Below, piece after piece: positions 1-31,949 of a stretch of DNA of 51,245 nucleotides (positions within the stretch are counted from its first letter, which is position 1; the number at the start of each line of letters is the position of its first letter). The stretch is from Elsinoe ampelina. Its lineage: Eukaryota. The notes under the pieces were generated by a model. It ran no database searches. It was not told the DNA's origin and saw only the letters and a program-made list of their open reading frames with translations. The translations under genes and the position numbers were made by a program. Where the stretch lies: assembly GCA_010093995.1 (NCBI GenBank), contig ML992507.1:875353-926597 (forward strand). Reading direction: 5' to 3'.

Positions 1-524
1 GTACTGAAGAACTGGTACTGATGAGTCAGCGCACGCACAGTAGATAAATCGGTTATTGTAACTCTCTGAATGAAACACACGTCTCTCGATCCGATTTGCT
101 AGTTACAACAAGCCCGACCGTCTTCCGTTCCTCTTCCCACTGCTCTCGCAGCTCCAATGTCTTTAATAAGTTATGCACAAAGGCACGAGCGGATCGCAGC
201 TCTGATCTTGCCTGGAGCTGGTCATCAGCTGCGATACGACGCCACGCTTTGTGCCTATTTTACAGCTGAGGGGTACGCGGCATCTTGCAGATACATGCAA
301 GCCACACAGTAGTAGTCTCTCCCTGTAGTCTTGGAGGATCCAGCATGCTGTTTCGCATGGGGCCCATCCATACTTGATCTCCATCACTTCGCCTTTCCAG
401 AGGGTGCGCCACCATGCTCTCAGCTCATCAGCTCTTCAAGCGGTCCTTTCACAATGCTACGCTCTTGTACGTCGAAAAACTTCGATCATCGATTTCGGCT
501 CCTATCATCCGGATACGAGGGACT

Positions 525-2043
525 CTACAGATACTGTGCCTCCACGAGGACCACTTCGGGGTTGAGGACCTGCCCTGCCTCGTCCAATCTTTTCACCAGG
601 GCTGGACTCTTCGTGCGCCTTGTTCCAGCCTTCTGCCAATCGAACAGCAACGTGGCTGGCTGCTGAAACAATAGAATCCCAGCTTCGCTAGCAGCTCGGA
701 GAATGCTTCTCAGGCTTTCGGCTTGTTTCTCGCTCCCCTTGCGAGGTTGCTCCCAGGGTGCAAATGCCTCGGCAAAATCGATGACGGCGGAATCAATGAT
801 ACCGCCAACATGCTTTGCGAAGCTCCTGCTCGTGCTTGGATCTGGCGCTAGATATGCCGTTAGGACACGCCATTGCGCGAACGCTTGGGCTGCGACTGAG
901 AATATGTGAGCATGATATGGTCAATGTCTCGCTATTCGTACCTTTCTGGGAGGCGACATTGCGCCTTGGTATCCTCCCATCTGTCTGCAAGGTCTGCCCA
1001 ATCGCCGCCGGGAAGACAACAAAATCTCGGGGCAATAGGGACTCTTCGACAGCTGATGACAGCGCTATACGCCGGACTATCCATGCGACAAAGATGGTCT
1101 CGAGGACAGGCAACGCCCTCTCAGATTGCTGCAGCAACATTTGCAAGTCCTGCGGTGCAATGCGATCCAGTCTATCGGCCTGCATTGTGCGGGTTTCATC
1201 CGCTCGATCTTGATAGTGAGCTTGTACGTGTATTTGGACCAGATCAAAAAGCGTGGCGACTCTCCGCGCAATGGTACGGTCATCTTTCTCCTGCGGCAGG
1301 TGCTTTTGCCATCCACTCATGCTGGTAGACCGGCCGATTGTGCTTTTCTGGTAGGAATTTACGTCGGATATGGCAAATCCAGTTGGACACGTTATGTTCG
1401 TTCGCTTTTCGCCAGACTGTTGTGCCTTGAGCTCATCCTGCAAGCTCCCACGCAGTCCCTTGGAGCCCGGTCTCTGCACCGCTCTGCGACGGAGACAGAG
1501 CCAGATCAGTGCTGATGCGAGCAGGATACCAGCAACAAAAGTTGCAACTGCCACACCTGCGATAATGCCAGTGCCGCTACCGGAAGAGGAGCTTGTTGCC
1601 GATACTACCGGGCCAGTCCCGTTCGAGCTGGGCGAAGTCTGGTTCGGCAGACCGTCAAACGGAGTTGTGGTCGTCCCTGGAATCATCCCGTCACTGGGAC
1701 TGGGAGATGTTGGCTGGTCTCCTGGTCCAGTTGTCACGGACTCGTTCATGGGCGACAACAGACCGATCGCCTGGGCTGCATTGATGAAACGCTGTCCCTG
1801 ATCGGCAGGTCGCGGGTAGAAAACTGTCAAATTTGCTGTTGGCAGTACAAGCACATTGGTGGGTGTACCGGGTGTCGATTGAGTGCGCGCAGAGACCGTC
1901 GTCTCTGGTGCAGTATTAGATGGATCCCCAAGCGATGACCGTAGAAGCACTGGCACGTCCGCCAGAATAATGGTCAATGACGCAGTGTCCTGAGCTGTCG
2001 AAATGCCATCCAAATTGATGGATGTGTATGTGTAATCAGCCAT
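525..2043 (-). CDS. Single-pass membrane protein: S/T/P-rich N-terminal stalk, one TM helix, cytoplasmic helical/beta C-terminal domain (possibly GrpE/Mieap-like); 2 exons
   Basis: ATG at 2043. TM segment GIIAGVAVATFVAGILLASALIWLCL followed by RRR. Phase-1 intron 941..896 (GTACGA...CTCAG) gives an open second exon VAAQAFAQWRVLTAYL...AGILLFQQPATLLFDW...SPALVKRLDEAGQVLNPEVVLVEAQYL, ending in TAG at 527..525. Confidence 0.8.
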
Positions 2044-2552
2044 TGCGAAGAAAGACTTCGTGATATCTGGAGGAGACCTGTCTTCCTGTGCGAGCGGAGA
2101 GGTGGGTATTGAAATGAACAGTGTGTTGCAGAGCGCGCCAGAAATATAGGAAAAAGTGACATTAATCTGAAGGCTCCGGTGGTGACCCTCAGAGAGTCAA
2201 TACAAAGAGGTTACCTCCACCCCAACCGGGAAAGGCAACGAATTCGACGCCCTGTCGATCTGCATGCTCCCTCAACTGCGAGTTCTAATCATTCATAGGC
2301 GCCTTCGACGGATCGCTTATGGCGAAGATTGACCTTCTGGACCAAATTAGAACTCGCACGACTCGCGACACAATCTTCAGCTGCGGCTGTAACCCCTGTG
2401 TGATTGCACACAGGTGGGACTAGTATGCAGGCAAAAGGTGGCTTACAGCTGCACTATTGGGTGGCACACCTCAAATATTGACCTACCTGGTGTCCAACCA
2501 AGCTTTCGCAAGTCGTACAATTCTTCGCAACGCTCGCTCCATCGTCGCATCT

Positions 2553-4573
2553 ATGGATGACACGAATTTTTACCGCCCAGGGAAGCCTGATATTGTCGTC
2601 GGCATTGATGTCGGGCAGACTTGCTCGGTAACTAGCTGATCTGTTAGTACAAATGGTCACTGACTGATCATGCTAGGGTATCGCATACTCGATCGGTCCC
2701 GACTGGAGCGAACCGAGAACTTTGAACAAATGGCCGAGCAATGAAGGTATCGAGAAAGCCGACAAAGTTGCAACGTGCGTCGGATATGCAAAGAGTGACG
2801 GGCGGCTTGTCAATTGGGGCTTCAAGTCCGACTTCCGGGACATTAATGTGGTCGTCCACGAGCAGTTCAAGCTTTTCCTGGACGCAGAGTACGATGAAGA
2901 AAGGAAAGGCAGCTGTGAGGAAGCTCGACGATGGTACTTTGACTATCTACGCTGCCTATACTATGAGATTGAGAAGTTCTTCGACTCGACAATCCCAGCT
3001 TGGCGGTCACTACAAATTGAGTACAACTTCAGCACTCCGACAACATGGAGGAACCCAGCGATGATAGCAAGTATCGAGAAGCTCATCTCCAGGTCCGGCT
3101 TCGGTAGCACCAGGCAGCAGACTGTGCGCATGGCTCTCACCGAGGCCGAAGCTGCTGCGATTGAAGCATCCACGACACAGTACAAGAAGGGGGACGTATT
3201 CCTGATCTGCGACGTAAGTGACACCAGACTCCAACGGCAGTTCCATAGTTGATTCGACCAGGCTGGAGGCGGCACAACCGACGTCAACATACTCAAGGTC
3301 AAATCCTTTGACCGACAGATAGAGCTGGAGCCTCTTGACCACGTCGAGGGTGTGCCGATTGGATCCACACTCATCGACTTCAAGGTCACGCAATATATCG
3401 TCGAACGTCTGGGACTCATCAGCGACAAGCTCGAAGGTGATGTCTTCTTTCTTGCGGAGCAAATGCTTAAAGGTCGATTCCAGACGATCAAGCACTCATT
3501 CCCCGACCCGGTCATCGATGAATTCTACCTCGACGTTAAAGGGCTTCCAGGCTCACAGACCTTTCCGGAAGCAGATATCACAAATTCCAAGATGAAGATT
3601 CCTCGCACGGTACTCCAGGCCATTTTCGACCAACAGATCGGAAGGATCGTCCAGCTCATCGACGAGCGGCTGCTGCATTTACAAAATATGTTTCCAAGCG
3701 AAGAGGTCTGCTACATCATCCTCTCTGGTGGACTCGGCAGTTCGCCGTATCTGTATCAAGCGATCAAGAACCGGTACCAGTTCCGCTTTGACATGCATCT
3801 GCGGAACACCCGACGGCTGACCGTGATGAAAGTCCTCGAGCCGTGAGTGCACCCTATTCGAGCTTGAAATCATTCCTAACATCATACCAGCCAGCTCGCC
3901 GTCGTCTACGGTCTCGTCAAAGAACGCACACAACAGATCGGTACCAACACCTCCCTCGGCGAAGAAGTCTTCTCCACCCGCTGCTGCCGCAACAGCTACG
4001 GCATCGTCGTCCGCGAACTCTACGACGAAACCCGGCACGCCGGCCTGCCCTTCATCGAAGACGCCAACGACGGCTGCAAATGGGCGCCCAACCTCATCGA
4101 GTAGGTACCCCGCTACCTCCGTTCCTCCCCGACTAACCTCCTCCTCCTCCAGTTGGTTCATCCGCCAAGGCCAACGCATCAACGTCGCCGAAGGCATCAA
4201 ACGCCCTTACAACGCGACCATCACGCACGGGGCCCAACACGCCCCCCGCCGCGCCCAAATCGTCATGTCCTCTCTTCCCGCACACCAACTCCCTCGCGCC
4301 CTCAGCCGAACAGGCTGGACCGACGTGGCAACCGTCGTATACCAGCTCACGGACAATGACCTCAAGCTGAAGAACCGGCAGCTGTGGAAGGTGAAGAAGA
4401 AGTACTGGCGGGCGAATTTCGATTTCGTGGTGTTGCTTGGGCCGGCGGATTTGAGGTTCCAGATCAGAGGGAGAGACGGGGTGATTAGCAGTGATCACGA
4501 GAGGATGGGGGTGGAGTTTGTGGACCCTGGGGAGGTGTGGAAGGTGGATTCGAAGGAGGTGGTGGGGAAATAG
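2553..4573 (+). CDS. Hsp70-family actin-like ATPase, HSPA12-like; 5 exons
   Basis: Introns 2628-2676, 3214-3261, 3843-3890 and 4101-4152 (all GT-AG) join the ORF fragments. Motifs: VVGIDVGQTCSGIAYS (phosphate-1), FSTPTTW, TEAEAAA, ICDAGGGTTDV (phosphate-2), IILSGGLGSSPYL (adenosine), PQLAVVYG. No canonical DnaK lid or EEVD. Confidence 0.9.
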
Positions 4574-4725
4574 GTACCACGAGAAGAGGATAGGGGGGTT
4601 TTGGAGAACCACAAGCGTCTTGAAGGGGAATCCAAGCGGATCTGACCTCGGTCGGTTTGTAACATTCGATTGGCTCATCTCGCGTATCTACCATTACCTT
4701 CCTCCCCCCCCTCCCATTTGCCCAT

Positions 4726-5559
4726 CTACAACAACAACATCGCAAAAGCCCCCACGCCCAATACCGGCACCGCAACCCCCAACTTCCCCGCCGCCCCCGT
4801 GAAGCTCGCCACAGGCGGCCTCGTCCCAGTCGCACTCGCGCTCCCACCAGGCGCCACTGAAGCCGTCGCATTAGGCGTGAACCCCGGCGCCGTCTTCACC
4901 GCCCCAGTATTATTCGCATTCTGGACCACGAAATAGTTCGCCTCCAACAACTCCACACCCTCCTGCTCCGTGATCGCGCTGATGGAGAAATTGTTCCTCT
5001 GCGATGATGACTGCGGGCGGAGAGCACCGCCTGCGAGCGCGGCGGGCACGGTGAAGGTCGAGGGTTGGTTGAAGAGGTACCAGGTGTAGATGTGGGGGAT
5101 GTCGCCCTGGGGTGGTTGGGGGCCTGCGTAGTCTGCTACCGCGGGCGTGCCGGAGGGGGTGAGGAGGCCGGAGGCGCCGACGGTGAGGTTGGTTTGGAGC
5201 CAGTGCAGGCGGGTGGTGCGGTCGGAGCCGATGCCGGGTGCGACGGGGCCGGGGGCGGGGGGGAGGCGGCTGAGGGGGAGGGAGAGGTCGAGCATCACGA
5301 GCATGTAGGGGCCGGGGGCGGGTTGGCGGGTGTTGACTCGTGGTTGGGTTTGGGCGACTGGTGGTGGTTAGCAGGAACGGGGATGGGAGCGGTGGTACTA
5401 CTTACGGGCTTGAGGATACTCGGTGCCGGGGTTGATGGGGGTGTTGCCGTAGGTCACATCGAGGCGGCTGTCGGTGTCTGGTTCACTGTCGTCTGGAGTC
5501 TGCGCAAGGACTCTGGATGCGCAAAAGAGCAGCGCAGCGGCGGCGTTGCGGATATACAT
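4726..5559 (-). CDS. Secreted, probably GPI-anchored PEBP (phosphatidylethanolamine-binding) family protein; 2 exons
   Basis: Signal peptide MYIRNAAAALLFCASRVLAQ. Intron 5405..5358 (GTAAGT...CTAAC...CAG). PEBP motifs YMLVMLD, LHWLQ, YAGPQPPQGDIPHIYTWYLFNQP. C-terminal FTGAA plus hydrophobic tail. Confidence 0.85.
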
Positions 5560-6324: not shown

Positions 6325-7652
6325 CTATTCTGAAGCCCACCTGCTTTCCCTCAGCGGCATCTCCTTGCCTTCTTTCGCCCTGGACCCGTCTGTTTCGGCT
6401 TTCCAGGCGTAGTATTCTCCGAGTCTCACCTCTGCGTAAGAAGGGTAGTCAAAGTCGATTTGCGATATCTGTGCCTGTATGAGAGCCCAGACGCCCCAAT
6501 AGAAGCCAGGTACACCTCGAAAGAGATCGACCTGCGCATACAGATGCTCCACTGCCTCAGCTTGAGATGCTTCTGAGCTGTCCGGATTTACATGATGGCG
6601 GTAAGATGCAACATAATGCTCGATGAATTCTCTCCTTTGCGATTTGGTCGGCATGGCATTGTAGTCGCAGTCGAATCCACCCCACTCAGCAAAATGGTTG
6701 GCGATGTCGAATGCAGCTGGCGCAGGAGTGGCATATTCGTAGTCGATGAATCCGATCTTGGGCTTGGTGTTCCCGTTGGCGTGTCCATTTGCCCTTGACT
6801 TCTGCACAATGACATTGCCGCAAAGCAAATCGCAGTGGCTGAAGATGTAATCCTTGCCGTACAAGCCGTGTGACTTGATCAATTGCGATTTGAGCTGATC
6901 ATTTTCGACTTGCAATGTCTTTATCCGCTGACGCTGGCTGTCGTTCTGGGCCGGAAGCGCATCAATCCACGACTGCAAGACTGACCAGAGATTTGGAAAC
7001 GGAACCGAAGTTTTTGCAGCCCCATTCACTTGCCCGTTTGTCCTCGCCTGAACATCCTGGACATCACTGATTGCATCGATTGACAAAGATCCGTGCCATT
7101 GACCTAGCTTTTCCGCTACAGCGCAGTATATCTCTTGTCTTCGAATGTCTTGGGGGGTGCAAACGTCTCCGGCGATGAATTTGTAGAGCAGTCCATTGTT
7201 GAATCGAGCAAAGAGGGGTGGGGCGAGACCTTTGCAGGCAAGGAGAGAATGTGCTCGGATTTCTCCTGTTTTGCTATCAGCAATTGTACGTCACGAGACC
7301 TTTTGTTTACTCACGTTCCCGATCAATGAGCACGTCGGTGCCCTCTCCGTATGCCCGGAGGAGAATAGCTTCCTCGTCAATGTCATCCTGAGAATAGCCC
7401 GGCCGCTTCTTCTCTGCTTTCAAGAGCTGTACCTGTCAGGACGCGCGTCTGTGAGTACAGGGTGGGGGCACTTGCCGTGTTCGTGATACCATCCGTGAAG
7501 CGGACAAAGTTGATCTCTCCTTCAGACTGTTGCCATTCTGGCAGTAGGGTATACAGCAGAAGTAACGCAGATTTCTCCGAATTAAAAGGGTCATATGAAA
7601 GCTCCAATTGTCGAACGGCGAGGGGAGAGTCTGCCCTTGGAGTAGGCACCAT
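6325..7652 (-). CDS. EKI1: Ethanolamine/choline kinase; 3 exons
   Basis: FTDGITNT|LLK, LLRAYGEGTDVLIDRERE, Brenner motif HCDLLCGNVI, FIDYEYA, AFDIANHFAEWGG. Introns 7475..7427 (GC-AG) and 7314..7266 (GT-AG). Confidence 0.92.
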
Positions 7653-8611
7653 GTTTACAGGGATCTCAAGGAGGCCGAGGTTGTAGGAATAAAGGCAATT
7701 GCAATAACCTGTTCGTCCAGTGCAGCATGAAGTAGTGGCCAGTACAGGGTTAGTCGCGCAATCGCGAAGAACAAATACAGACAATGTAGAAAGGGTGCGA
7801 TGGGAAACGTGATCGAGGTCTGGCGCCCGTTTAAAATGGACGGGCATGTGCGTCTTGGGACATGTGTCTGTGTGTGTCCAGCGGTGGGGTCTTTCGGGTC
7901 TTTCCCCTCTGTGCAACTACAGTCAAAGCTGGATATAGTGATATCTTTTGCCAGAGGCCTTTTTATCACTATAAAGAGCTTATCACTCTATCGAATTGAG
8001 GCTCAAATTGGCTTAGCAGTCAATCTCTATTGCGTGAGGAAGTAACTATCTAGAGATCTCTATATTATGCCCTTAATTGCTCTCCTTTTTAGCTTCTTCT
8101 CTTACCTTCTTAGTGCTCTTATCTAGTCGTAATCGTAGTCGTTAGCTTGCTCTTTATGCAGCTAGAGTTAAGCTAGAAGTTATAAGGCCTTAGAGGCCTT
8201 TATATAAGGTAGCTCCTTACTAATCTCCTTATTAGACTTCTTCTCTAGAGTAGCTATAAACTACTTAGCTAGAGTCTCTAAAAAGGCCTTATTAACGCTC
8301 TCTAAGGTGTCCTCTACCCTCTCTTCTAGTAGAGCTAGTAGCTCGTTAATATCTATAGCTTAATAAATAACCTATTAGTGTTTAAGGCTAGTAAGCTAAG
8401 CCTTTAACTACTTCTCTAGCTAGTGCTACTTATCTATAGATATACTAAAAGACTTAGCCTACTAGTAAGTAATTAGACTAGCTATAAGGAGACTAGTATA
8501 ACGCTAGTAATTTGCTATAGTGAAAGGTGTAATAGTATTCTAAGCCTATATAAGGTTTCTTATAGCCTTAAGAATATTTATACTCTTATAAGGATCCCTA
8601 TAAAGAGTAAC

Positions 8612-8798
8612 TATTAAAGCCTTATATTAAAGCTATATATGTCGTAATATAGAGAATGCCTATTTAACTAAATAGTTTATTAGTAGTAGAACTAATTACT
8701 ATTAAGTTTAAGACGTAAGTGCTATATAAGATAAGTAGGTATATTACGTAAGCGGGACTAGCCGCTACTAAGTGCCGCCCTAATACTAGGCCCTTATA
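8612..8798 (-). repeat. 3' LTR of the Gypsy element
   Basis: Direct repeat of 15115-15301 with 17 mismatches, all transitions. Termini TA...TA are RIPed TG...CA. Adjacent to the PPT. Confidence 0.95.
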
Positions 8799-9236
8799 AT
8801 TGCCTCCTCCTCTAGGAGAGCTATCCTTAGCTCTTAACTAGAAGTATATAATGTATAGCGCCTTCTAGAGGTAATATAGACTTAAGGTAGTTAAGGTATT
8901 TATATAAAAGCCTCGTATATGTCTCGTATACTACTTAGTAGTAGTAATCCTAGGGATCTAGTTCCTATAGGGGCGTTTGTCTAGTCGCTATAGTACTAAA
9001 GCTAATCGGCAGTAATAATATTACTTTTCTTAGAATTTCTAGTAGTATTATAGGAGATATACGCCTTATACTAGCGGCTATAATAAAGATATAGTATACT
9101 AGAGGTTAGTCTATATAATCTTGTTATTCTCCCTTATATTCTCTTTTTCTATCTAAAATATATCTATATTTTATTAATCTCTTACTATATAAGTATACTA
9201 CCTACGACTATTATATTATCTAACTCTAGCCTCTCT

Positions 9237-10008
9237 ATAGCTAATACTCGTAGTATAAGGTTAGCTAGCGCCTAGGGAGCTATTACTACTAGCGCTAACC
9301 CTACGACTCTCTTACTTTCTAAAGAGAAGACTAATACCTATACTAGGTGCACTAATAGCGTCGCTAAGAGTAAGCTAATAGAGCTCTTATAAGAGACATA
9401 ACTAATTCGTAGTAGATTATATCTATACTAGAGGTAACTTTAGTATCTTCTTCTATTATAAGTATAAATACTACGCCTATAGTAAGTACGTATATAAGCT
9501 ACTTCTATCTATTCTATATAACGTCTACGTCGACGTCTTTAATATAGTTACTAAGCTTAAGGCCCCTAACTAGGCTAGTATTACTATAGCTAAGAAGTAT
9601 ATATATACTATAGCCTATAAGAATATCTCTAAGGTTAAGAAGTTTAAGACTATACTTAAGGTATACTACACTAATAAGAATAAGGTTATTAGTAAGGTCT
9701 TAACTCCTTATATAGAGCCTATAGGCGGCTCGCTTAGTAGTGTTACGCTCGAGTATAAGAAGGTTAAGGAGCTATAGAAGATTAGGCGTAGCCTTTATAG
9801 CTTAATTACTATTAGTAAGGAGGTAAGTTAGACTATGCTCTATATACGTTACGAATATAGCTAATAGGTTTAGATAGTATATAACTCCGATAGTTCTACT
9901 ACTAAAATAGACTATATTATAGCTAGTAGGCAGCTTATAGCCTCTATAGTACCTATAGGGGAGAATCTTAGTATAGAGGTAAACGAGGAGAATAGTAAGG
10001 ACAAGTAG
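9237..10008 (+). pseudogene. RIP-mutated, intron-containing extra gene antisense to pol inside the Gypsy element; Zn2Cys6-like Cys cluster
   Basis: One reading frame is kept across introns 9370-9412 (GTAAGC...CTAAT...TAG) and 9823-9873 (GTAAGT...GCTAAT...TAG), with only three internal TAG stops, each explainable by transitions. De-RIPed reading: MANTRS...CTRC...C...KCEYCARGKHAC...acidic tail. Confidence 0.6.
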
Positions 10009-13000
10009 GCGTATATAAGCTAGGTATATATCTCTAGCGCTATACCTATAATAAGGCCTTATATAGAGTATATTAGAGTATAGAGTTTAGGTTAGTACCT
10101 ATAATAGTAGCGTAAGTATAGCGCTTTATTAAAATATATTTCCCTAGGTAAAGAGTCTACTCTTTACTCTATTTATATATTTATATAATCTATCTACTTA
10201 TATACTCTATAATCTGCGCCTTCGGCGACCTTTCTTAGCTACTCTTAGCTATAACTTATATATAGTAATTAGCTCTCTTATATTTACGTAATTCTCTTTA
10301 GGTTTCTAGCTATTAAACTCGATAGGCTAGTCCTTCTACTTTACTAAGTAGAATACCTTACCCTTCGTAGTTCTCTTACCTAGGATCTTCTCTACTATCT
10401 ACTTATTTACTTTGTTAGCGAGAGATATACTCTCTTCTAGCTTCTTACTAGCTTTACCTATTTATAGTTTAAGAATAGATATATAAAAGACATTATAGAT
10501 ACAATACTAACTCGGTAAAGCTAGGCGATATACCTGCGATCTAATTACGTTAAGTATACGGAATAGGCTAAGAAATTGTAGTTCTATCTTCTTCTTTAGT
10601 ATAGGTACCTATAAGTTCTTAGCTAAGAGTAGTACTAAGTTATCTACGCTATATACCCTTAGTATATACTTCCTATTATAGTACTTAGCCTAGTAGGTAG
10701 AAGTCTCTTTCTATTACTCTACTAGCTTTATATATATATCTCGTAAGTGTTATACTAACTCTACTACTACTAGTACTCTTCTCTCTAAAGTCTTGTCCTA
10801 AGACTTAATAGCTATTACCTCTAAATCTAGATAGTAGCTATATATTATTTAGAAAGGGCTTATATATAGCGTAGTATAAACGCTATTATTACTTACAAAT
10901 TCTGCTTATAATAGACATTTAGCCTAGTTATTCTATAGCTCTATATAGTAGTACCTTAGGTACTATTCTAACGTCTAGCTTTACTACTTAGTTTAACTAT
11001 CTATCTATAGGTAAAAGGCTATACTAAGCCTACGCTTTATACGCGTTTCGTAATAGAATTTACTCTAGAACTAGCTAGTAAAGACCAATTCTTAATTACT
11101 TACTATCTCTCTTAGAACACTATAATAGTAAATAATATAGTTACGTAGGATCTCTACTAGCTCTATAGACGTATACTTCTTCGTAGTAGAGATATATAGT
11201 AACATCTTAGTATAACGGTCTATAATTACTAGTACTATATTATAGACGCTACTACCTTACTTACTTAGTAGTAGGTTAGTAATAAAATCTATTATAATTT
11301 CTTACTATAGGTAGTCTAGTATTAGTAGCATATATAGCTCGCTATAGAGGTAATAGCGGTATACCTTATATTTCTAGTATACTTAGTATAACTATATATA
11401 GTTATTAATATCTTTCCTTATAGTTACCTAGAAGTACTTCTATAAGAGGAGTTTAAGTATCTTATCCTTACTAAAGTAACTAGCCTATTCGCTATTATAG
11501 TGTATATATAGTACCTACGCCTTAAGCGTACTATTATTTAGAACAACTAGTAACTCTTTATAGAAGAGAAGATTATCTTATATATTCTATAGCGCTTTAC
11601 TCTTATCTCTACTACTTCTTACTTATAAATATAGCTTTATAATCTCGAGGTCTTATCCTTATAGTAGCTCTACTACTAATATTAGGTTAGTAGATAGATC
11701 TTTAAAGGGATTCTCCCTTATAGTTACTATAACTACGACTCGCTAGGTCGTTATAAGCCTCTAGAAGTTCTTAGAAGAGAAGTTGCTACTATATAGCGTA
11801 TAGGTAGCCTAGGCCTATTCTAGAGTAGCCTCGTATATAGCGTAGATATATCTAATAAGTAGAGTAGCTTCCTTAATATCGGTAGTCTAGTCTTATATAT
11901 AAAGCTTATTCTAAAGGGTAGAAAGGAGATATAATACCTCTTACTCTTCCGCTACGTAGTTAGAGCGCCTCGAGGGCGTATTAGCTAGGTTCCTCGTACC
12001 TAGCTAATACTCTATTATAAAGTTAAAAGTAGTAAGAAAGGTAGCCTAGTAAGCTTATTAGCTATTTAGCTATTTTAGCTTTATAAATCCTTAGAGATTA
12101 TTATAGTTAGTAAGTACTTAAATTATATATAAGACACCTTCGAGGTAGTATTACTATTACTTAAATATATATACGATTACTAATAGCTCTTAGTTATATA
12201 TCTTATAATTATACTTAGCTAGGATAAACTTTCTCGACTAAAAGGCTATTAGGTACTAAGTACTATCGAATAGTTAGGATAGAATTACTACTACTATAAA
12301 CTTTAATATATTACTTTTAATACGTAGAGGTAGCGTAGAATTATAGTAGCAAAGAATAGAGGTACGTATAAATACGTCCCTAATATCTTTAAATGCCTAC
12401 TATTCGCTTATACCCTATATAAAAGAGCTATACTTATAACCTTTAACTAAGCCTTTAAGGAGGCTAGAGAGGGGAGTAATAATCTTAGAGTAGTACTATA
12501 CGAAGTAATAATAGAAGTTTATAAAGCTAGTAAACTACTAGACCTTATAATAACTCTTCGGCCTTAGCTAATTCTTAATTATAGTTACTCTACTAGGATC
12601 TATTAAGACGCCTATAGTAGAGATAATATAGCTAAAGAATTCTACCTCCTTAGTAAAGAATTTATATTTCTTAAGGTTAGTATATAAAGTAAACTTCTAT
12701 AGCCTTACTAGAATCTTATAAATATAATATATATAGTTCTCTCTTAAATCGCTATAGATAAGAATATTATTAAGGTAGATAATATAGATAGTATTAACTA
12801 GCCTACCTAGTGCCTTATTAATATATACTTAGAAGGTAGCTAGAGCGTTAGTTAATCTAAATAGTATAACTAAGTACTTAAAATAGCTATAGTATATATA
12901 GAATATAGTCTTCTACTTATCGCTATACTTAATAGAGATCCTATAGTAGGCATCCTTTAGATCTAACTTCGAGAACTACTAGGCTTACCTAAGCTAATTA

Positions 13001-15114
13001 AGCATCTCGCTAATAAGTAGAAGTAGGTAGCGATTCTTAATAGTTACTTTATTTAAGCCCCGATAATCTATATATAAGTATAGACTACTATCTTTCTTAG
13101 GCACGAATAGGATAGAAGTACCTACCTCGCTTATAGAGCGCCTAATTTACCTATTTAATTAAGTAGTCTCGAGATAGTCCTTAAGTACTTTAAGCTCCTT
13201 AACTAAAAGATTATATAAAGGCTAGAATAGAGACCTTCTACCTAGCTCTAGCTTAATTATATACTCGGCGCCTAGTAGGTATAGTAGATTTATAATATCC
13301 TTATAGATAAAGACGTTAAAGAACTCTACGAACTTTAATAGTAGAGCCGAGTTACCTATAGTATAAGTATAGTCCTTAGATAGAGTCTATACTATAGTAT
13401 ATACTCTTAGCTCGTTCTTAAGGTCCTTTATAAAGTCTTCTAGTTCGCGTAAGTAAACTATATATAAGAAGTAGCTATATAACTAGTTATCTATAGTACT
13501 ATTTATAATTACGTACTATCTTCTCTACTATAGACGCTCTAAAATAACTAGAGGGTCTAGTCCTAAGTCTATAGCGTAGAAGAGGCTAATTATCTCTCTA
13601 AGGCTACTATAGGAGTCTACTAGGCATATACGAAGCTAGTATACGCTATAGTAGAATCTAGCTTACTCTATAAAGGAAGAAATACTTAGATACTAAGTAT
13701 ACTTAACTCTTAGTAGATCGTAATAAAGGGTAAATACCTAAGATATAAGATTAACTTCTATATAATCGTCTATAAGAAATATATAGTCTTTACGCTCTAT
13801 AGGCGCTATAATAGCGCTATAATAGAGCGGCGATAGATAAGTATTAATTAGGAGAGGAAAAGGGCTTAGTTATACTCTTTAGCTAAGCTCTTAAAGTTTA
13901 CTAACTTAGAGTTATCGACCTTGTCTATAGTAGTAACCTTATATACCGCCTATAACTCGTAGTCTTTCTATAAGTACTTCGATCTATACTCTAGCTTAAT
14001 ATAACTAGTTTTACTATAACTATAGTACTTAGCGTTCTTTTTTTACTTATTAGAGAAACCTCTCTAACTACTAAACTATTTAATAGGTAGGTTAGTAGCT
14101 TTACGCTTATAGTAAGCTTAAGAGCTACTACTAGACTAGTAGTAGTATCCTTCTTAAGGGCTACTATAACTACTATACTTACGTAGGTAGTTACTTTTAT
14201 CTTCTTATATAGTACGCTTACTACTAGTATAGTCTATAGACTTAATATATAAGTCTAAAGAGACTAACTCCTAGCGCGTAGCTAGAATAGTATAGTATTT
14301 AATAATAGTAGTACGTAGTATAGACTATAGCTTAGTAAGGAGATAGTATACTCTCTACTCTTTAGAGTAGAGAGCTAGTTACTCCTTAAGGGTAGTAAGT
14401 TCTAAAGCGAAGGCCTAGATAGATTAGCCTTTATATTATTAGGCTCCTTTATATATAAGAGTTACGCGTACTCTACGATTAATAGAGTTATTAACTACGT
14501 CCTATACGAACTAGCGGAATTGCTCCTATATATAGCCTTCTAGGCTATCTATATAGTAGTAGTAATACTATATCTTATCTAGCTTACCTACGAGAAATAT
14601 AACTCTATAGAGTACCTTCTACTAGTCGGTAGAATAAGCCTTAGAGGCTAGAGTAAAAATAACCTTAAGATTCTTTAAGAAGGATCTTATCTCTTTTAGA
14701 GTCTTACTCTAGTAGAGATAGAGTTCCCTTAGTTAAGGTCGTCTAGAGAATAGCCTTACGAATAGTCTACTACTACTATATATGCTCTATATACTAGTAT
14801 TACTTACTATAGGCTTAGTAGAAGTACGCGAGCTATAGTCGAAGCCTCCTTAGTAGTATTCTATATCGTATATATAGTATATTTACTTAATCTCTTTCTC
14901 GAGGCTCTAAGCCTTAAGCTTTAGCTCTAAATGCTTACGCTCGGCGCGTAGGTATAGTAGCTACTCTATAAGAGTCTCTTCTTCCTCTAGAGGAGTCTAC
15001 TTAATAGAGTCTATCTCTATAACATTAATTATATAAGGTACTAGCGCCTCGCTAATAGAGTTCTAGTTATCTATAAAGTCTAATAGATTACGACTATAGG
15101 GGAGTAATTAGAAC

Positions 15115-15301
15115 TATTAAAGCCTTATATTAAAGCTATATATATCGTAATATAGAGAACACCTATCTAACCGAATAGTTCGTTAGTAGTAGAACTAATT
15201 ACTATTAAGTTTAAGACGTAAGCGCTATATAAGATAAGTAAGTACGTTACGTAAGTAGGACTAGCTACTACTAAGTGCCGCTCTAATACTAGGCCCTTAT
15301 A
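15115..15301 (-). repeat. 5' LTR of the Gypsy element, with a self-priming PBS next to it
   Basis: Direct repeat of 8612-8798. AGTAATTAG (15103-15111) is an inverted repeat of CTAATTACT (15195-15203) inside the LTR. Confidence 0.93.
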
Positions 15302-17432
15302 GTAACCTTATCTAGTATCTATATAAGCTAAGTCCTTTAGTAATAAGACTTAAAAGCATAAATAATACTTTAATCTAGAGGCTAAGTCTTACTTATTAAG
15401 TTAGCTAGAAGCTAGTAGATTTTAGTATTAATAAGGCAAGTAGTAGTAATAGTAGCTTAATAAGTATAGAAGTTATCGAGGAGAAGTATTACTTATACTA
15501 GAGATTAGATAAGATTATAAAAATCTCTATAAAGTATCTTTATATATCTTTCTTCTACTTATATATAGATTAAACTACTCTAACTACTCCTTTATAAGTA
15601 TAGTATTTATCTAAGCCTTCTTATTTAACCTCTAGACTAAAGTGTACTAGTTGTAGATATTTATACTAGCTTTCCTAAAGGGGATTAGCCTCTTTATACT
15701 ACTAATTACCTATAATAAGATCTTCTTAGTACTATTACTATTATAGTAAAGATAGATAGTAAGACGCACCTTATCTCTTTTAATACTAGGGAGCTATTTA
15801 GAGGCTAATAAGTAATTAGGTACTATCTTCTAGAAGAGGCTAGTCTTATTATAATTAAAGCAATTATATAGTAGAAACTATACTAGCTATACTTTTATCT
15901 TATCTATCTCTTTCTTAATTAAAGCTAGATTAACACTACTAGCCTTGCTATAATAAATGTGTAATTTTATACTATATCGAGCTTTAAATCTAGCTAGCTA
16001 GCCGTTACTAAAATAAAGTAAACTTTAGTAGTAATAGTAAGAAAGAGCTTACTATATCCTTAAGGCTTAAGCTTAAAGAACTTTACTAGTTATTAGTACT
16101 ACTATTTTATAGGCCTTTTACTATATAAAAAGAGCCTCTTTAACATCTAGATACTTAGTAAGGCATCTCCTTTTATACTTACGAAGAAAGGGGCCTTTAT
16201 TAAGCTAGCTAAACTTGTTACTAAGGATATTAGCTATAGTAGATTAAGTAATTAGCTGCTTAAAGGTTTACTTAAACTACCTCTAGAGGTTGTTCTATTT
16301 AGTAGAAGAATAGTTACGCTTAAACTAATAGATAGTAGCCTTCTCCTTATTTAAATAAGCTTACTATTTAGCTATAGTTAATAGTATAAAAAGAGCTTAA
16401 ATAATAGTAAGATTATAACTCTACTAAAAAGAGGCCTCCTTAAAGAGGCCTTAGCTAAAAGGCCCTTACTAAAAAGGCTAATTTGCACTAAAAAAGGCAG
16501 TTGGATATAGTGATAGCTAGCCTCTAACACTATTACTATTACTATAGCTAGCTTTATTACTATCCTTATATAAATATTCACTGGATTAAGCGATTGCACC
16601 ACTGTAAGCAACTTATCACTATCGAGCTAATCACTATAGAGAGATTTGACTGTAATAATTAACTTAGCGGCCCGCCCAAGCAAAGGCACTTAGGTAGCGA
16701 CCCGCAGCCTGCGAGCGTTCGTTGGACTGTCGTTCCTGGCAGCAGCGGAGCCAGTAAAGATCGCCCTGCAGGTGACGTCGAGCAATTCGAGACTCTGTTT
16801 CACGCCCGCCTTGACCTCTGCCCTTTTGCCCCTCCTTTGACCGTCGCCTCCTGGCAGTTGAACATGCCGAGTCAACGGCCTTGAGAGACTCGACCCAATG
16901 AAAGGGGGATAGGCAGAAAGCTGTGTGCGCATTTCAATACTTTTCGTATGCCTGGTCCACAGGTCGCGTGCCTCACCGCCCGTCCCAAAGTTTTGCCCGT
17001 CAACGATGGACAAAGAATATTTCCTCAAGTGCAGCCCGAATGGTCCCCGCACAGCCCAACTGCCCGATCGGGTCGCTCATTTCGGCTCTTCATCTCTGGC
17101 GTGGGGTCATTTTGGCTCTCTGCTTGTGAAGGCATGTGACGACGTTTATCCTCTTCATCAATCGGGTGTATATCCCATCGAAAACCTCGTAATGTTGATG
17201 TATTGCTGAATCAAATGCTAGATCTTGAATCTCGAATCTCGAATCTCAAACGCTGACTCAGCCGTCGATGCATCTCCGTCTGCCTTATCTATCCAACCAG
17301 CGGAACGGCTGGGCACTGATAACAGATCATGGTGGCTTGCGTTCACCAGAGGGGAAAGACAGGTAGGTATGGACGTCCTTGACTTCACAGCCTCCTCCCG
17401 CATATCATCCACTGTCCTCAATCCAGGCAGTC

Positions 17433-24837: not shown

Positions 24838-27800
24838 GGTGAATGATGTTATGAGTGTTGCTGAGTCTGCAATGGAATGGTGCTGGAGTTATTGGCTGGT
24901 GGTGATGAGGATGATAGTGAAGCCAGGGTGCGGCCTTATATCTCTTCTCAGCCAGAGCAATTGTCTAGCGACCGAAGATCCAGACTTGACCGTATTCTAT
25001 GAACAAATGACGCTTTTAGACTTTGTTCTCGTATCCAGCGTTCGAAGATCGTCGCCGTTACGACGGAGGTTCCGTCTAATTCGTAAAGCTTAACTGTATT
25101 TTATGCAAGGAGTCGATCTTGTATTCTTCCTTACTTCCTCATCGAAGAAATTCTGCACTTGAAGATTTGAGCAATTACAAGGTGTTTGTTGTGTGTGAAC
25201 TCCTGCTTGTTAATTGTGAGATTCACGAATAGCTGCTCTGCGGATAGCCTTCACTCACCGATTTGAATTTGGTACCAGCAATATTGGCCACCATGAAACC
25301 AATAGCCGATGGATGATCGCCCGGGGGAAGAGATCTACACGATCCGACCTGCACAAGAAGAACCGGGCTCTTTTGAGACTCTGACATCATGTTTCCTTTT
25401 CAAATCCTATGCTGAGCTATTTTTGGCCCTGGACCTGGGGCAGGTCGAACGGTCCCGGTTGTAACATAGTAACCGTTAAGCCTCAATTCGCTCATCACCG
25501 GGCCATCAAACTTCCGCTCTTTAAAGGTGGCGGGCGAGCTCAGGGTGGTCCTAGCATCAATGGCATTCAGCGGGACTTGATCTAGCTTCATACCTTGGCG
25601 TACAGTCAACGGGAGAGCTGGCTATGCTGAAGCCCCGGGGTCCTGACGCACGGCAAGGTGGCCGCAGTCCAAGAGATTGCCTTGGTCGACCCGTGCTGCC
25701 CAAGAAAGCTTCCAGCGACTGTATGTAGATCCTCTCGTACCAGATACTCTCGTCTGCCCAGCTAGAGACGGCAGCGCGCTGCATCGTGAACCATGCATTG
25801 TTCACGCTGACGTACTGCGGTTTCGAGAGAAAGCGAGATTCCTGCATTGTATATTGGAGATCCCCAGCGACCCCAGATGAAGAAACGTCCTGCACTCTTA
25901 GTAGTAGCCGTCACTGAGTACGCACTGACTGGATTATTATATAAAGATTTCGACAATGCGGTTCTGTTCCGTCGGTTCTGTGGCAGGAGACAATCTGGCT
26001 CAGAGAATCCGAGATACAACGAATTGTTTGGTACTGTCGCCTCGGTATCCCCACCTCGGTCTTGGGTACAAGAGGCGGCTTGTTACCGCAACGCCAGCCT
26101 GCTGTGGCTCGATTGTGTTGCGCAGCCCAAGTGTCGTGAAGGTGCACGGGAGCAACGTCTCTGAGGTATTAGCATGCTCAACAGAAGTCGTATAGGACGC
26201 ATTCCTTGATCAACAGTCTCACTTCGACACGAGTATTGAAAGTCATGAGCCCGAGCCCAGAGGTTTCGATTGCCACACAAGATTCCTGGCATTCAATGGA
26301 GAGTCGTATTGACCGTTCCAAGAGCCCTGACAGCTTTGGCATGGTATAACTGCTCGGATACCTTCACTCAGCTAAGGCTCCAGCCAGCCACCCAGTCACT
26401 CTCGTATGACGATGCATGTTGCGGTGATCCTGCGGCAATCGTACTCCAACCTGGAGGATAGGATGTTCTCAATGCATTAAAGGTCGGACAAGGTGGTAGC
26501 GATCAGATCATGCGTAGGAGGGTGAGTAGTGCGGACTGAAGGCAATCGTGTGCCATCATAGATCATTGCTCGATTCGAGAAGGCGATGGCATATTAGCAG
26601 CCGGATGACATAAGATATAATAGCAGGACATACGTCCTCGTGGGTCTTGCCAGCCCTGATCGGTGGTATCGAGAATCGGAACAATGGGAAGAAGAACGCG
26701 AAGTGTTATTTAGGCAGGCTTCGACCCGGAGGCCTCAGAGGTCCGCAAAGTAGCTTTCACGCTATTCTTGCTCCCAAAAATCCCGGGATAAGCTTGGCGC
26801 GGCCTCCGCGAATTTGCGTGACTAGATACCAATTTACCCCTAAACAACACTCCTAACACGGTTTACACCCCCTATGAAGCTGTAATTAAGCTAGATAACT
26901 GACTAATATAGGGATTAAGAGTGTATTAATGTCCCTATTAACTAATATTTCCACCTAAGCTTAAATTAGCTATTAGCGTGCCCTTACTAATTTACTTAAC
27001 TTCTCTATAGTGTTACTACTACTAGATAACCTTTCTACTGTTTCCGAACAGTCTCTAACTCCTTAGCCTAAGAGTAGTTATAAGATTAATAAAGAGTAGT
27101 TAACTATATATCCTAGTTAATATATAATACAATTATATACTTCTCTAGATACTAGAAGGTTATTACTACTCTTAAACTTAAAGTAAATACCTACTCTGCC
27201 GAGCAATAGTAATACTTAGTTAAGTGCTTAAAATATTTAATTTTAAGAGCCTCTAGTATTAGAGAAGCCTATTAAATACTCTTAGAGTAACTTATATTAC
27301 TCCGGCTACTTAATAGCTAGTAAGTTACCTTTAACCTTTAAGCCTAAGCCTATCTATTTAAAACTACTAACTTATTATAAGAGAAGTAAGCCTTAAGCTA
27401 CTACTATAGAAACAAGTAAGGAGGAGAAGGCGCTAGTTATAAAGGCTATTAAGAAGACTCTACTAAAGTAGCTAATAAAAGAGACTAAAAGTGCTACTAG
27501 TCTAAGAACTTATACTTATACTAAGAGTAACCCTCGATAACCTCTCTAAGTACTATATAATAGTAATACTAATAAACGAATACTATAAGGAGCTTTAGAA
27601 GGTTAAAGAGGTGCCTAGTACTCTATTTCTAAGGCCTCTAGTACTTATAGTATAGTATTATTATTACTAAGGGGTCGATAGGTATTAAGCTAGTAAAAGG
27701 CTTTACTACTAGCTAGCTCGTAGCTACGAGTTATTAATTTCCTTTTAAGGTAGATTACTAACCTTAATAGAGATATAATTAGTAATATAGAGAGTGCTAG

Positions 27801-30733
27801 TAATACTAGTAAGAGTCTATTTAGCCTCTAGCTAGATTTATACTACCTTATCGACTAGATTACTAGCTAAAGGAGAGTTAATATATAGTTTAAGAAGCGT
27901 AATACTAAGCTCTTTAACTATGTAAATACTATTAAACTATATATAGTCTTTAAGGATTTTAACGCTCTATATAGAGTAGTTTTTAAGTTAGGTTAGGTAC
28001 TAGAATTACTACCTATAACCTAACCTATAGCGATACTAGTACCTAAAGCTTAGCAACTGTAACCCTCTAAGCCTTAGGTAGTGTTACTTAGCCTTAGGTA
28101 TATAGTTAGTTATAGTGTTACTTATAATACTACCTAATAGTACCTATAGGTACCTAAGAGTTAAGGAGTAGATATATATCTTAAGAACTTAAGATTTAGA
28201 AATTAAAATTTAAAAGTTAAAGGTTATAATTACGTTTATTAATTATGCTAATCTTGCTAGCACCTCCTATCTACTCTTATAGCCTATGCCTTACTTACTT
28301 ATCTACCTTTATAGAATAATTGTCCTTACTATAAACTATCTAATTGTCCTAGTTATATGTATTAAACTTTGTATAATAGCGACGAGCAAGCTATAAATCT
28401 TTCTAGTTAATAGTAACTTACTTAGTATAAATGCAATTAAGGTTTATATATAAGAATATTAGTATCTATAATAGCATTAAATTCAAATAATAGATACCTT
28501 CTATATACCTAACAATAAATGCCTCTATTACTTTCTAAAGTACTTTAAGAGCTTTAGATTAGATATAAAAGCTTTTACCTTAACGAATATAGTCTCTAAT
28601 AATCTTACGGATAAGGCAGCTAAAGAGAAGCTTATAGTAGAGAAGTTTAGTTAACTTCTAGTAGCGATAAATCTCTTAGAGAGCAATAGCTATATAGTAT
28701 TAGTAATATAACGTAATAATTAATTATAATAATTATACTACTAGTCTTAAACTTGTTCTTCTTTCTAGAAGTAATAGTTGTCTTACGAGGTTACTTAGTA
28801 GTAGAAGCCTTAGGTCTACTAGACAACTTGCCCTTATAACTATAACTATAGGTTAGTACTATAGTACCTCTCTTAGGAGGTATAGTTACTATTACTACTA
28901 AGGATAGAGTCTTAGGAGGTACTTATAATATAAAGTAATCTTATAGTAGTAAGGGTAAGGTAGTAGAGGGCATAGAAAGTAACGAGGTAGATATAGTAGT
29001 AGTATAAAGAAAGATAAGTAGAAAGAGAAGAGGTAAAAGGGGTAGAAGAAGAGAAATATATAATAAGAAGAGAAATACGTAATAATTTAGTAGCTAGTAA
29101 TAGCACGGCTAACAATAGAAATATAATATTATAATAGAAATATAAAATTAGCAAATTAGAAATATATAGTATATAGAATACTTACTTATTATAATATTAT
29201 TTATAATAGTAGGGCATATAATATTAGATTTGTTCGAACGCTTAGAAGAAGAGAAATCTAGACATTATAGGGTACTAACAATAAGTACGTAATAATCTAG
29301 CGTAATAATACAATACTAATTTAGTATACTATAATTCTTAAAAACCTTATATTTTATATTTTATATTCTACCCTAGCTACCTTATTATTACTTTATATAT
29401 AGTAGAAGGCTATATTACTCTCCTCTATTCTCCTTCTTCTTCTATTAACTTCCTTTCTTCTTGTCTCTACTGCTCTTTTATTTCTACGCTCTTAAGTTTA
29501 ACTTTTATATCTTATTTTACTATAGTAACCTCTCTAGATACTCCTATAGCTAATATACCTTCTAATACCTCTCCTAGTAGCTCTCCTAAGATTAAGAATA
29601 AGTTTAATAAGTTTAAAACTATAATAGAGGTAATTATTATAGCGTTTTATTACGAGTATTAAGCTAATAGGTATAGGGCTTTAGGTCTAAGTAGGCTAAA
29701 ATCGAATACTAGATCCTTTAGCGTAGTTAAGGCAGCAAGGCACATCACAGTTGTCTAACTAGTTTTAAAGCAGGTTTAAGTAAGCCTTTAAAGTAGAATA
29801 TTTAGAATATTATACGCCGAGATAAAGATACTTAATAGTCGGCTAAGGTTAAGGCACTTAAAGTAGCTAGAGATACTAATCGTAGCATAAAGAGGAATTT
29901 ACTTAAGAAGTTTAATATAAATACTAAAGTCTAGAACCTTAGTAAAGAAGTAAAGGTAGAACTCCTCGTAGAAAAGATTAAGAAAATAAAGTAGCGCCGT
30001 TTCAACGCCTAGTAAAGCTATATAATTATACTACTATATTATTACGTTTAACACTAATAGATTATAGATAAATAGCTATCTAGCAAGTTTAGAAAAGTCT
30101 ATATTAAATAGTAGCGCATTAGAAAATTTGCTATATGTTAAGAGTATATAGAAGTCCTTATAAAGGTAAAGGTAGCTTATACTACTAAGTCTAGCAAGGA
30201 GAATAATATATTAAGAGTAGCTAAGTAGATATATAGTTCTAGCGGAATTCTCGAGAAGCTTAAGTATAAGATCTATATAGCTAGTACTACTAAGCTTACT
30301 ATTAATAAAGGTACTAATAAGAATACTAAGAAGAAGTACTTAAAGTTTATCTAGAAACTTAGTAAGGAGAGTAGGCTTACTACTATCTCTAATCCTAACT
30401 AGTAGTAAGTTCCCTATTATTATTATATATTATTATTACGTTAGTATACTAACAAATAGTAGAGCTTATAATTCTACGCCTCTAGCTAAGTATTAACTAC
30501 TTAAGCTAATCTATCTTATAGATAAAGGTAAATATATAAAGCCTAACAACAATAACAAGTGTAAAGAAGTATATAAGCTAGACTATAACTCTAAGATCGA
30601 GAAACTAGCTAATAAGTATAAGACAGACAAGTAATATACGAAGTTTAAGAGGTTTTCCTCTAATAAGGATAAGATTATTAATAAGGAAGAGAGGGTTAAA
30701 GTAGAGAGTTCTTTAGAGAGTAGAGATAAGGAG

Positions 30734-30820
30734 AAGAATAATAATAAGAATAATAATAAGAATAATAATAAGAATAATAATAAGAATAATAATAAGAATA
30801 ATAATAAGAATAATAATAAG
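30734..30820 (+). repeat. 12-bp tandem repeat (AAGAATAATAAT) x7, probably a RIPed acidic (E/D) coding tract
   Basis: Directly visible tandem array. Reverting G->A changes gives GAG/GAT codons near the end of a plus-strand cargo gene remnant. Confidence 0.7.
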
Positions 30821-31949
30821 GAAAGAAATAAGGAAATAGTTAATACTAAGAAAGATAAATTTACTAGCTTTAACTAGTGGATTTTCTATACTATAATTAA
30901 CTACTAAGTAGTTTAATCTATAGTATAGTCCGGCCCTTTTATAGATTTAAGTTTTATAACGAGATCTCTTCCTATATAGCTACTATTGTTATTTATGCTT
31001 CTAATTGTTACCTCTAATAATAGTAAATTATCTATATTATTACTTCTAACGATAGATTTCTATTACTATTATTGCTACAAACAATAGGAGGTACTAGATA
31101 TATATACTATCTCGTTCCTATTTATTCTTCTTTCTAAAACCTCTCTTCCTTATTATTATAGCTTCTCGCGTATAACTCTATCTCGACCTAGGAGATCTAA
31201 TCCTCTACTAGCCTCGTACTATAACTCGTAGCGACTACGCTAGGCTACTATACTTACGTTAGTGTAAAGCTTATATCTACTATATAACTAAGTAATTTAT
31301 TAATAGCGAGAAAAGGTAGACTACTTATATCTATAATAATAATAGAGGCTCCGAACTTTACTATAAGGCCTATCGCTCTTATAATACCCCTTATAACTTT
31401 ATTAGTATTCCTAATCTAATACTACTACATTCTCTAATAAGTATTAGTATAATAGCTCCTAGACTAATAATATTTTTAACCTTATCGATATATAGCATAT
31501 ACTTAATCGTCGCTATCTTAATCTTATCTAGGATTAGATTATAATCTTTAATATATACTATAGTATTAAACGCTAGTAGGACGAGCTAGATAATTCTAAA
31601 TCCTAAGGATCTTAATAGTTCTAATTCTTCTAGTAACTAGTTTAGTAGTACAATGTAAATAAAGCGTCGGTAGGCTAATAGCTTTAGTAAGTTTTTTATA
31701 ATATAGATATACCTTTAATTTTACAAATTTTCTACTCTACTCTAATATAGATATGTCTTTAATTTTAATTATGTTACCTATTCCTTAGCTCCTATATAAT
31801 ATAAGTCTAGCCTATAGAAATTAATATACCTCTTACTTTAAAGTTTCTATAGTATAGTATAGAATTTATTATTACGTATTATAAATACATTAATAAACAT
31901 TCTATAACAAGTTATCTACCTTTATTAAATGACATAATCTACACTAATT

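Follow-up and report, generated by a model that had tools for sequence, protein, structure and literature searches.

We describe a divergent pair of genes in a 51,245-nucleotide stretch of Elsinoe ampelina DNA (assembly GCA_010093995.1, contig ML992507.1, positions 875,353 to 926,597 of the forward strand; the whole stretch is hereafter called the window). The left gene encodes a membrane protein of an unnamed family that has a folded cytoplasmic domain, and the right gene encodes a putative ATPase of the Hsp70 superfamily. Comparisons of sequences and locus tags indicate that the two genes represent a real, conserved, divergent two-gene module of filamentous ascomycetes. Since the partners stay neighbours across many related fungi, they probably work together. 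We favour a reading, with a probability of roughly 0.55, in which the cytoplasmic domain of the left protein is a private docking or regulatory partner, or a dedicated client, of the ATPase, and the pair acts as an anchor or sensor plus a motor.

Adjacency was judged from the locus tags in the protein lists of the two families, and nine genomes other than that of the window had tags for both. Left- and right-family tags were consecutive in seven of these nine: Elasticomyces elasticus (right LTR17_020907, left LTR17_020908), Friedmanniomyces endolithicus (right B0A54_04027, left B0A54_04028), Cercospora beticola (right CB0940_02019, left CB0940_02020), Saxophila tyrrhenica (right LTR77_004674, left LTR77_004673), Meristemomyces frigidus (right LTR62_000844, left LTR62_000843), Peltaster fructicola (right AMS68_000481, left AMS68_000480), and E. 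elasticus with a paralogous pair (right LTR27_001103, left LTR27_001104). The partners share one contig in the remaining two, Pseudocercospora eumusae (66 kb) and Myriangium duriaei (4.2 Mb), where the tags are silent on adjacency. Metagenomes were scanned with the left-family motif W245-QKHLPQEKDD, taken from a 14-sequence alignment, and four environmental loci (L001 to L004) were obtained. A right-family gene was located directly upstream on the opposite strand at all four. L001 and L002 appear to represent a single lineage, and the spacers at the environmental loci are approximately 700–1100 bp by rough estimates of the start codons. A reading made from the letters of the window without database searches (hereafter the sequence-only reading) had proposed a dedicated, co-located pair and had named a lack of conserved adjacency as the finding that would speak against it; these genomes and loci show the opposite.

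The same reading had suggested a comparison of the two phylogenies, and the trees agree, including the paralogous LTR27 pair. In the right-family tree (a quick IQ-TREE run), the window protein belongs to clade A of 10 orthologues, with a Shimodaira–Hasegawa-like approximate likelihood ratio test (SH-aLRT) support of 100, and LTR27_001103 belongs to a separate clade B of nine (SH-aLRT, 99). M. frigidus strain LTR85 has one right-family member in each clade and, therefore, clades A and B are paralogous. In the left-family tree (FastTree, 23 proteins), the window protein is placed in a clade of 11 with a support of 99, and LTR27_001104 groups with Hortaea and LTR66 with a support of 98. The two family trees mirror each other, and the two paralogous pairs have co-diverged. 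Because each of the two paralogous pairs kept its partner, this pattern points to joint selection on the pair as a unit.

The right protein is probably an active ATPase of the Hsp70 superfamily that belongs to an uncharacterised lidless type. It has the same length (607 amino acids) as P0009, an E. ampelina "actin-like ATPase domain-containing protein", and exon 3, the only exon compared, was 100% identical to it. The protein carries the motifs GIDVGQTCSG, DAGGGTTD, and SGGLGSS, and ends in ...KEVVGK. K55, E181, D204, G206–208, T209, and D211 were invariant in all 51 right-family sequences, D19 was present in 42 of the 43 that cover this position, and SGGLGSS was near-invariant. A family profile of 51 members (A4) matched 106 PDB sequences, solved Hsp70/DnaK structures, at E<=0.001 over a range of approximately 171–389. 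The best match was the DnaK nucleotide-binding domain 1dkg_D (E=8.6e-10), which covered profile positions 171–381 only. P0009 itself matched the Pfam HSP70 model (PF00012) over residues 181–375 with 14.0 bits (E=0.014), below the gathering threshold of 20.6 bits; its relative P0025 passes this threshold with 24.7 bits. NCBIfam returned only far-sub-threshold matches of the HscA/DnaK/YegD type, and PADLOC gave no match for the right protein.

Beyond approximately residue 389, neither Pfam nor the PDB gave any match, including to the substrate-binding domain or lid of Hsp70, and EEVD was absent from the C-terminus of the window protein and from all 15 family C-termini inspected. The earlier description of a protein that has no canonical lid or EEVD was, therefore, borne out. 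It had also pointed to a variant phosphate-1 loop, DVGQT. This variant is present; however, it is a family trait and not peculiar to this gene, the position of Q22 being occupied by M in 23, Q in 10, and T in eight of 51 aligned rows. In precomputed annotation, Pfam PF27033 (DUF8340) is given for many of 113 relatives, and the entry for P0009 is "-". In the nearest Atlas structural cluster (TM-score 0.88), 31% of the members have PF27033. Structural neighbours of the whole right protein were found in clusters from Ascomycota, Basidiomycota, and Mucoromycota and in actinobacterial "Hsp70 family" clusters, with TM-scores of 0.63–0.88. The right protein may be of the HSPA12 type, as the sequence-only reading had labelled it.

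A scan of genome contigs with the right family gave nine prokaryotic loci, which matched only around the phosphate-2 motif (25–33% identity over at most 134 residues). No left-family match was obtained at these nine loci, in a scan that was uninformative. A 440-bp contig in a bacterial assembly, labelled Achromobacter sp. (L005), encodes 132 amino acids that are 33% identical to residues 131–254 of the right protein; none of the other prokaryotic loci matched as well. Among the longer relatives in the right family, P0069 (752 amino acids) combines the Hsp70-like ATPase with a PigL_N/SesA domain (E=1.6e-21) at its N-terminus. This domain is otherwise typical of fungal proteins of the NOD-like receptor (NLR) type. 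The extensions of three other long relatives, P0020, P0098, and P0107, had no Pfam match.

The left product (490 amino acids) was a 100% match to P0007, a hypothetical protein of E. ampelina, in a database comparison. It was modelled with AlphaFold2 on 82 sequences. An N-terminal part of approximately 150 amino acids, rich in S/T/P, was predicted to be disordered. It is followed by a transmembrane helix (residues 159–188), in which the predicted local distance difference test (pLDDT) score reached block values of up to 94, and then by a low-confidence linker. The cytoplasmic domain (residues 243–490) had 10-residue block means that were mostly above 90, with 66–87 in a few blocks. It is predicted to form a compact bundle of seven helices and then four short strands, and ends with a helix at 422–445 and strands at 449–485. 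The S/T/P-rich stalk, the single transmembrane helix, and the C-terminal helix with short strands had already been noted from the letters; all are seen in the sequence and in the model, and the motif GILLFQQP..FDW..PALVK..DE.G..VLVEA, listed at the same time, occurs in the protein and is conserved among left-family members. The strongest motif is W245-QKHLPQEKDD-255, with 16 identical residues against P0008, and W245 and H248 were invariant in 14 orthologue-level sequences of the family. The cytoplasmic fold is predicted with confidence and has no clear solved relative.

The S/T-rich part is variable and sequon-bearing, and is probably glycosylated. Since RRR follows the transmembrane helix on its C-terminal side, this part probably faces outward by the positive-inside rule. 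No signal peptide was evident by eye in the left protein, and no predictor was run. In the alignment of left orthologues (A3), the outward part contains the motifs G-F-x-L-Y/W-x-P and x-L-F/Y-V/I-P-V/Y (columns ~85–100 and 200–215). Both are degenerate in the window protein, and the AlphaFold2 model has no confident structure there.

Pfam, NCBIfam, and PADLOC gave no match for the left protein; matches to the transmembrane model TM_ErbB1 were found by Pfam in seven of 82 left-family members. A word-based search returned two proteins, which made the left gene appear to be an orphan with a chance neighbour, and an exhaustive HMMER search overturned this view. With a two-sequence profile, 793 representatives of clusters defined at 50% identity were found at E<=0.001; 273 of them reached E<=1e-10 and 47 reached E<=1e-30. 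The majority of these matches span the transmembrane helix and the whole cytoplasmic domain, and many end at the profile column of the intron. Named members belong to Dothideomycetes, Eurotiomycetes, and Lecanoromycetes. Three Atlas clusters of Ascomycota hypothetical proteins, none of them named, share the predicted left fold with TM-scores of 0.69–0.75. Left orthologues are 25–31% identical, with a median tip branch of 0.92 versus 0.35 for the ATPase, and, as judged from these sequences, the left family evolves fast.

The gene models are summarized in Table 1. The two divergent genes, their start codons at 2043 and 2553, and a shared spacer of approximately 510 bp had been read correctly from the letters. 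Contigs from four public runs of three studies were compared with region 400..4700. No run is on record as RNA; however, the introns of the right gene are spliced out in these contigs and, thus, the runs hold RNA-derived contigs. The introns were skipped with GT..AG ends at the predicted sites: 2628..2676 in two runs, 3214..3261 in three, 3843..3890 in all four, and 4101..4152 in three. Transcription of the right gene and its splicing according to the model are, thus, confirmed. Both genes are covered by contigs, and a single contig (X1, 4438 bases) runs from the left gene through the spacer and across the right gene in spliced form.

Table 1. Features of the divergent gene pair, in positions of the window
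Feature	Positions	Strand	Description
Left gene	2043..525	-	2 exons, 1 intron, 490 amino acids
Left exon 1	942..2043	-	Residues 1–367 and base 1 of codon 368; identical to the N-terminal 367 amino acids of P0007; disordered S/T/P-rich part, transmembrane helix, linker, start of cytoplasmic domain
Transmembrane helix codons	1480..1569	-	Residues 159–188, then RRR C-terminally; helix in the AlphaFold2 model
Motif W245-QKHLPQEKDD-255 codons	1279..1311	-	Most conserved motif, start of the folded cytoplasmic domain
Left intron	896..941	-	GTACGA..CAG, 46 nt; junction in P0007 ...ASQK|VAAQAF
Left exon 2	525..895	-	Residues 368–490 and stop; last three helices, four-strand sheet, LFxQP and PALxK..DE.G motifs
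Shared spacer	2044..2552	.	509 bp between start codons
Possible 5'-untranslated region intron, right gene	2102..2298	+	GTGGGT..ATAG, 197 nt; single contig X2, one run
Right gene	2553..4573	+	5 exons, 4 introns, 607 amino acids
Right exon 1	2553..2627	+	Residues 1–25; phosphate-1 loop GIDVGQTCS
Right exon 2	2677..3213	+	Residues 26–204; K55, E181, D204 of the ATPase core
Right exon 3	3262..3842	+	Residues 205–398; AGGGTTD (phosphate 2), SGGLGSS (adenosine motif)
Right exon 4	3891..4100	+	Residues 398–468
Right exon 5	4153..4573	+	Residues 468–607 and stop; C-terminal region, no match to Hsp70 substrate-binding domain or lid, no EEVD

The left intron was skipped in none of the four runs; the contigs read through it, whereas right-gene introns were spliced in the same runs. 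This may be due to intron retention, antisense read-through, or a spliced form that is in the minority. The donor of this intron, GTACGA, is off-consensus. We accepted the spliced left model because the reading frame is conserved and the L001 and L002 homologues are intron-less across the junction. Removal of the intron is required to bring the conserved C-terminal exon into frame, and the spliced protein is the one that is conserved. The exon-2 frame is open, with 30–48% identity to relatives. The window, L003, and L004 have the intron, with a change of frame at this site in L003 and L004, whereas L001 (2185–2979) and L002 (3856–4491) do not. These sequences indicate intron gain or loss at one position in the left family.

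The joint in X2 that suggests an intron in the 5'-untranslated region (UTR) of the right gene is weak (depth 2, with only 27 letters on its shorter side). If real, this intron would place the first exon of the right gene within approximately 30 nt of the left start codon, and the two transcription units would start almost back to back. No three-unit heat-shock element was found in the spacer of the window or in four homologous spacers and, therefore, classical heat-shock control is not indicated. Across the five loci, with L001 not counted apart from L002, no 9-mer was common to three distinct spacers and no obvious common element was seen.

Based on these results, we propose a working model for the pair. 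The membrane protein would expose its variable S/T-rich part outside the cell and offer its conserved, folded domain to the cytosol. The soluble ATPase from the neighbouring gene would be recruited to this domain, be regulated by it, or act on it. The ATPase would then work at the membrane, and its ATP cycle would set the state of the tail of the membrane protein. We infer physical binding, membrane recruitment, and the direction of control from the layout and conservation of the pair. A broader version of the model is tentative and clearly less probable: a rapidly evolving surface protein with a new cytoplasmic fold would be hard-wired to its own Hsp70-superfamily ATPase, and the two would be inherited and duplicated as one divergent unit, wide in Pezizomycotina, that serves as a switch in membrane-to-cytoplasm signalling or self-defence.

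Several points weigh against a dedicated partnership. On the far side of the left gene, L001 and L003 have additional genes in common, and the adjacency of orthologues may in part be ordinary retained synteny. One distant paralogous pair was checked (1/1), and 13 other named distant left-family members have no readable neighbours. The word-based search gave no other Elsinoe species for either gene, and the distribution of the pair may be patchy. Since the right family is much wider than the left (by structure, it extends to Basidiomycota, Mucoromycota, and bacteria), the ATPase needs no such partner generally. Furthermore, if the dominant transcript in the four runs comes from the sense strand, it would not encode the last third of the cytoplasmic domain. 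The contigs carry neither strand nor expression level and drop minor forms, and co-regulation is not readable from them.

The strongest alternative is that the two genes are co-regulated neighbours only, with a shared bidirectional promoter kept by selection, perhaps a common pathway or condition, and proteins that never touch. We regard this as unlikely, but it deserves more weight than the other alternatives. The conserved feature is the head-to-head order with a short spacer. One RNA contig bridges the spacer, and the possible 5'-UTR intron suggests nearly abutting starts. However, the spacers of the five loci have no common 9-mer or obvious element, and conservation of promoter sequence is, thus, not visible. 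Moreover, the retention of the pair in two paralogous lineages with mirrored trees goes beyond the usual effect of a shared promoter.

A role in non-self recognition or defence, in which an ATPase switch would be linked to a surface protein that evolves fast, by a logic akin to fungal NLR systems, is improbable. The divergence of the left family described above (25–31% identity; tip branch of 0.92 versus 0.35) would suit such a role, and so would the PigL_N/SesA domain of P0069, the location of the L003 pair approximately 2 kb from a NACHT-ankyrin gene, and that of the window pair 3.4 kb from an AT-rich block. However, one fused protein among 113 relatives and one NLR neighbour in one lineage are anecdotes, and neither protein had a PADLOC match. 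Furthermore, the pair is represented by one-to-one orthologues over an order-level span, unlike typical hypervariable recognition loci.

The sequence-only reading had taken the left C-terminus to be GrpE/Mieap-like and the left protein to be a membrane-tethered exchange factor for a private Hsp70-like ATPase. This claim is unsupported, and we consider it even less probable than a role in defence. It is in keeping with the conservation of the pair, with the long helix followed by short strands at the left C-terminus, and with the Hsp70-type nucleotide-binding core of the partner. Hsp70 exchange factors of several unrelated folds are also known, and exchange activity needs no GrpE fold. However, the structural and profile searches gave it no support. 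GrpE itself has a long, paired N-terminal helix, a four-helix bundle in its dimer, and a C-terminal beta domain in contact with the nucleotide-binding domain. Foldseek against the PDB gave no match at E<=0.001 for the whole left model (best E of 0.55), and VIA against 48,161 chains gave none at Z>=5, the best being a generic helical piece at Z of 4.8. A separate model of the exon-2 subdomain (three helices and the sheet; pLDDT of 89.3) again had no Foldseek match at E<=0.001; its best VIA hits, at Z of 6.1, were helical hairpins of approximately 56 residues, with none at Z>=8. GrpE was absent among the Foldseek and VIA matches listed for both models, which barely covered the strands of the subdomain; this absence does not prove a different fold. 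None of 14 left-family members matched the GrpE Pfam model (PF01025) at E<=10. No GrpE chain was present in the 58 PDB rows obtained at E<=10 with profile A2, nearly all of which concerned the transmembrane helix and adjacent segments. In the model, the C-terminal helix packs within the compact bundle and is not a free, elongated dimerisation rod. To judge from these models, the resemblance to GrpE reduces to "helix then strands", although the small sheet may still bear a distant likeness.

Chance or neutral retention of an ancestral neighbourhood is very improbable: compact fungal genomes often have genes arranged head to head, and L001 and L003 have further synteny, but the seven genomes with consecutive tags, the four loci of four, the 4 kb beyond the right gene at L003 (which have nothing in common with the window), and the second, paralogous pair all disfavour it.

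The proposed docking or client relationship was compared with known systems. As in DnaK/Hsp70-GrpE, the pair is a two-protein unit, and the window ATPase shares the Hsp70 nucleotide-binding core and catalytic residues. In contrast to that system, the left protein is a membrane-anchored compact bundle with no match to GrpE in sequence or fold, and the ATPase has no recognisable substrate-binding domain, lid, or EEVD. Animal HSPA12A/B are similar to the right protein in being Hsp70-derived, approximately 600–700 amino acids long, and free of the alpha-helical lid, and an "SG" after the phosphate-1 threonines is presumably common to both. The function of HSPA12 is "presently unknown" according to the accessible part of a 2026 review (PMC13580251), and that part mentions no dedicated membrane partner, unlike the arrangement reported here. 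A further difference is that the fungal relatives carry DUF8340 (PF27033) by precomputed annotation; the HSPA12 membership of the right protein is putative.

Membrane-bound proteins place an Hsp70-type ATPase at the membrane in the Tim44/mtHsp70 and Sec63/BiP systems, in which the contact depends on the nucleotide state. Our working model proposes the same arrangement. However, the left domain has no J domain or Tim44-like match, the pair is not known to belong to any translocon, and it consists of conserved divergent genes. In PilM-PilN and MreB-RodZ, a single-pass membrane protein uses its cytoplasmic part to bind a soluble ATPase from the actin/Hsp70 superfamily; the layout of a soluble ATPase and single-pass partner is the one proposed here. 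Those systems are bacterial, belong to other subfamilies, and use short binding peptides or a helix-turn-helix domain, and no homology of the pair to either was found. The left protein resembles the wall sensors Wsc1/Mid2 in its S/T-rich outward stalk, one transmembrane helix, and cytoplasmic tail. In such sensors, a signal peptide is present, the stalk is O-mannosylated, and the short tail binds Rom2. The left protein differs in the absence of a Wsc domain and in a folded cytoplasmic domain of approximately 250 amino acids in place of a short tail. The Mid2 Pfam model matched one of 82 left-family members (E=0.0038) and did not match P0007.

The ATPase is a new member of a known superfamily, whereas neither the left family nor its conserved pairing with the ATPase appears to have been described. 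In the accessible results of literature searches on HSPA12 in fungi, gene pairs, E. ampelina transcriptomes, and YegD, nothing was found on the pair, and no mention of DUF8340 was found in the literature searched. The lidless HSPA12-like branch of Hsp70 has no established function or partner. A partner gene kept across two paralogous lineages provides a testable hypothesis on what such ATPases act on and where. The present results also define a large family of fungal membrane proteins that has no Pfam model (793 clusters) and a cytoplasmic fold that has no clear solved relative. If true, the hard-wired module would offer a first way into the function of the HSPA12/DUF8340-type branch of Hsp70, which is uncharacterised.

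Some features of the neighbourhood were noted. The next gene after the right gene (4726–5367, minus strand) lies in a very GC- and proline-rich stretch; its product has the domain of phosphatidylethanolamine-binding proteins (PBP; Pfam E=1.4e-7) and a hydrophobic C-terminus. A frame at 6325–7290 (minus strand) is choline/ethanolamine kinase-like, by eye only. Two blocks of the window (8000–16500 and 26500–35500) are AT-rich, with 27–34% GC versus approximately 50–56% elsewhere, and have no open frame of at least 150 amino acids. They resemble degraded repeat isochores of the repeat-induced point mutation (RIP) type, and the first starts approximately 3.4 kb from the stop codon of the right gene. 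At L003, the pair is flanked by LRAT-like (2206–3600), DUF6601 (8267–9295), and NACHT (NPHP3_N) plus ankyrin-repeat NLR-type (10181–14961) genes, and the side with the DUF6601 and NLR-type genes is common to L001 and L003.

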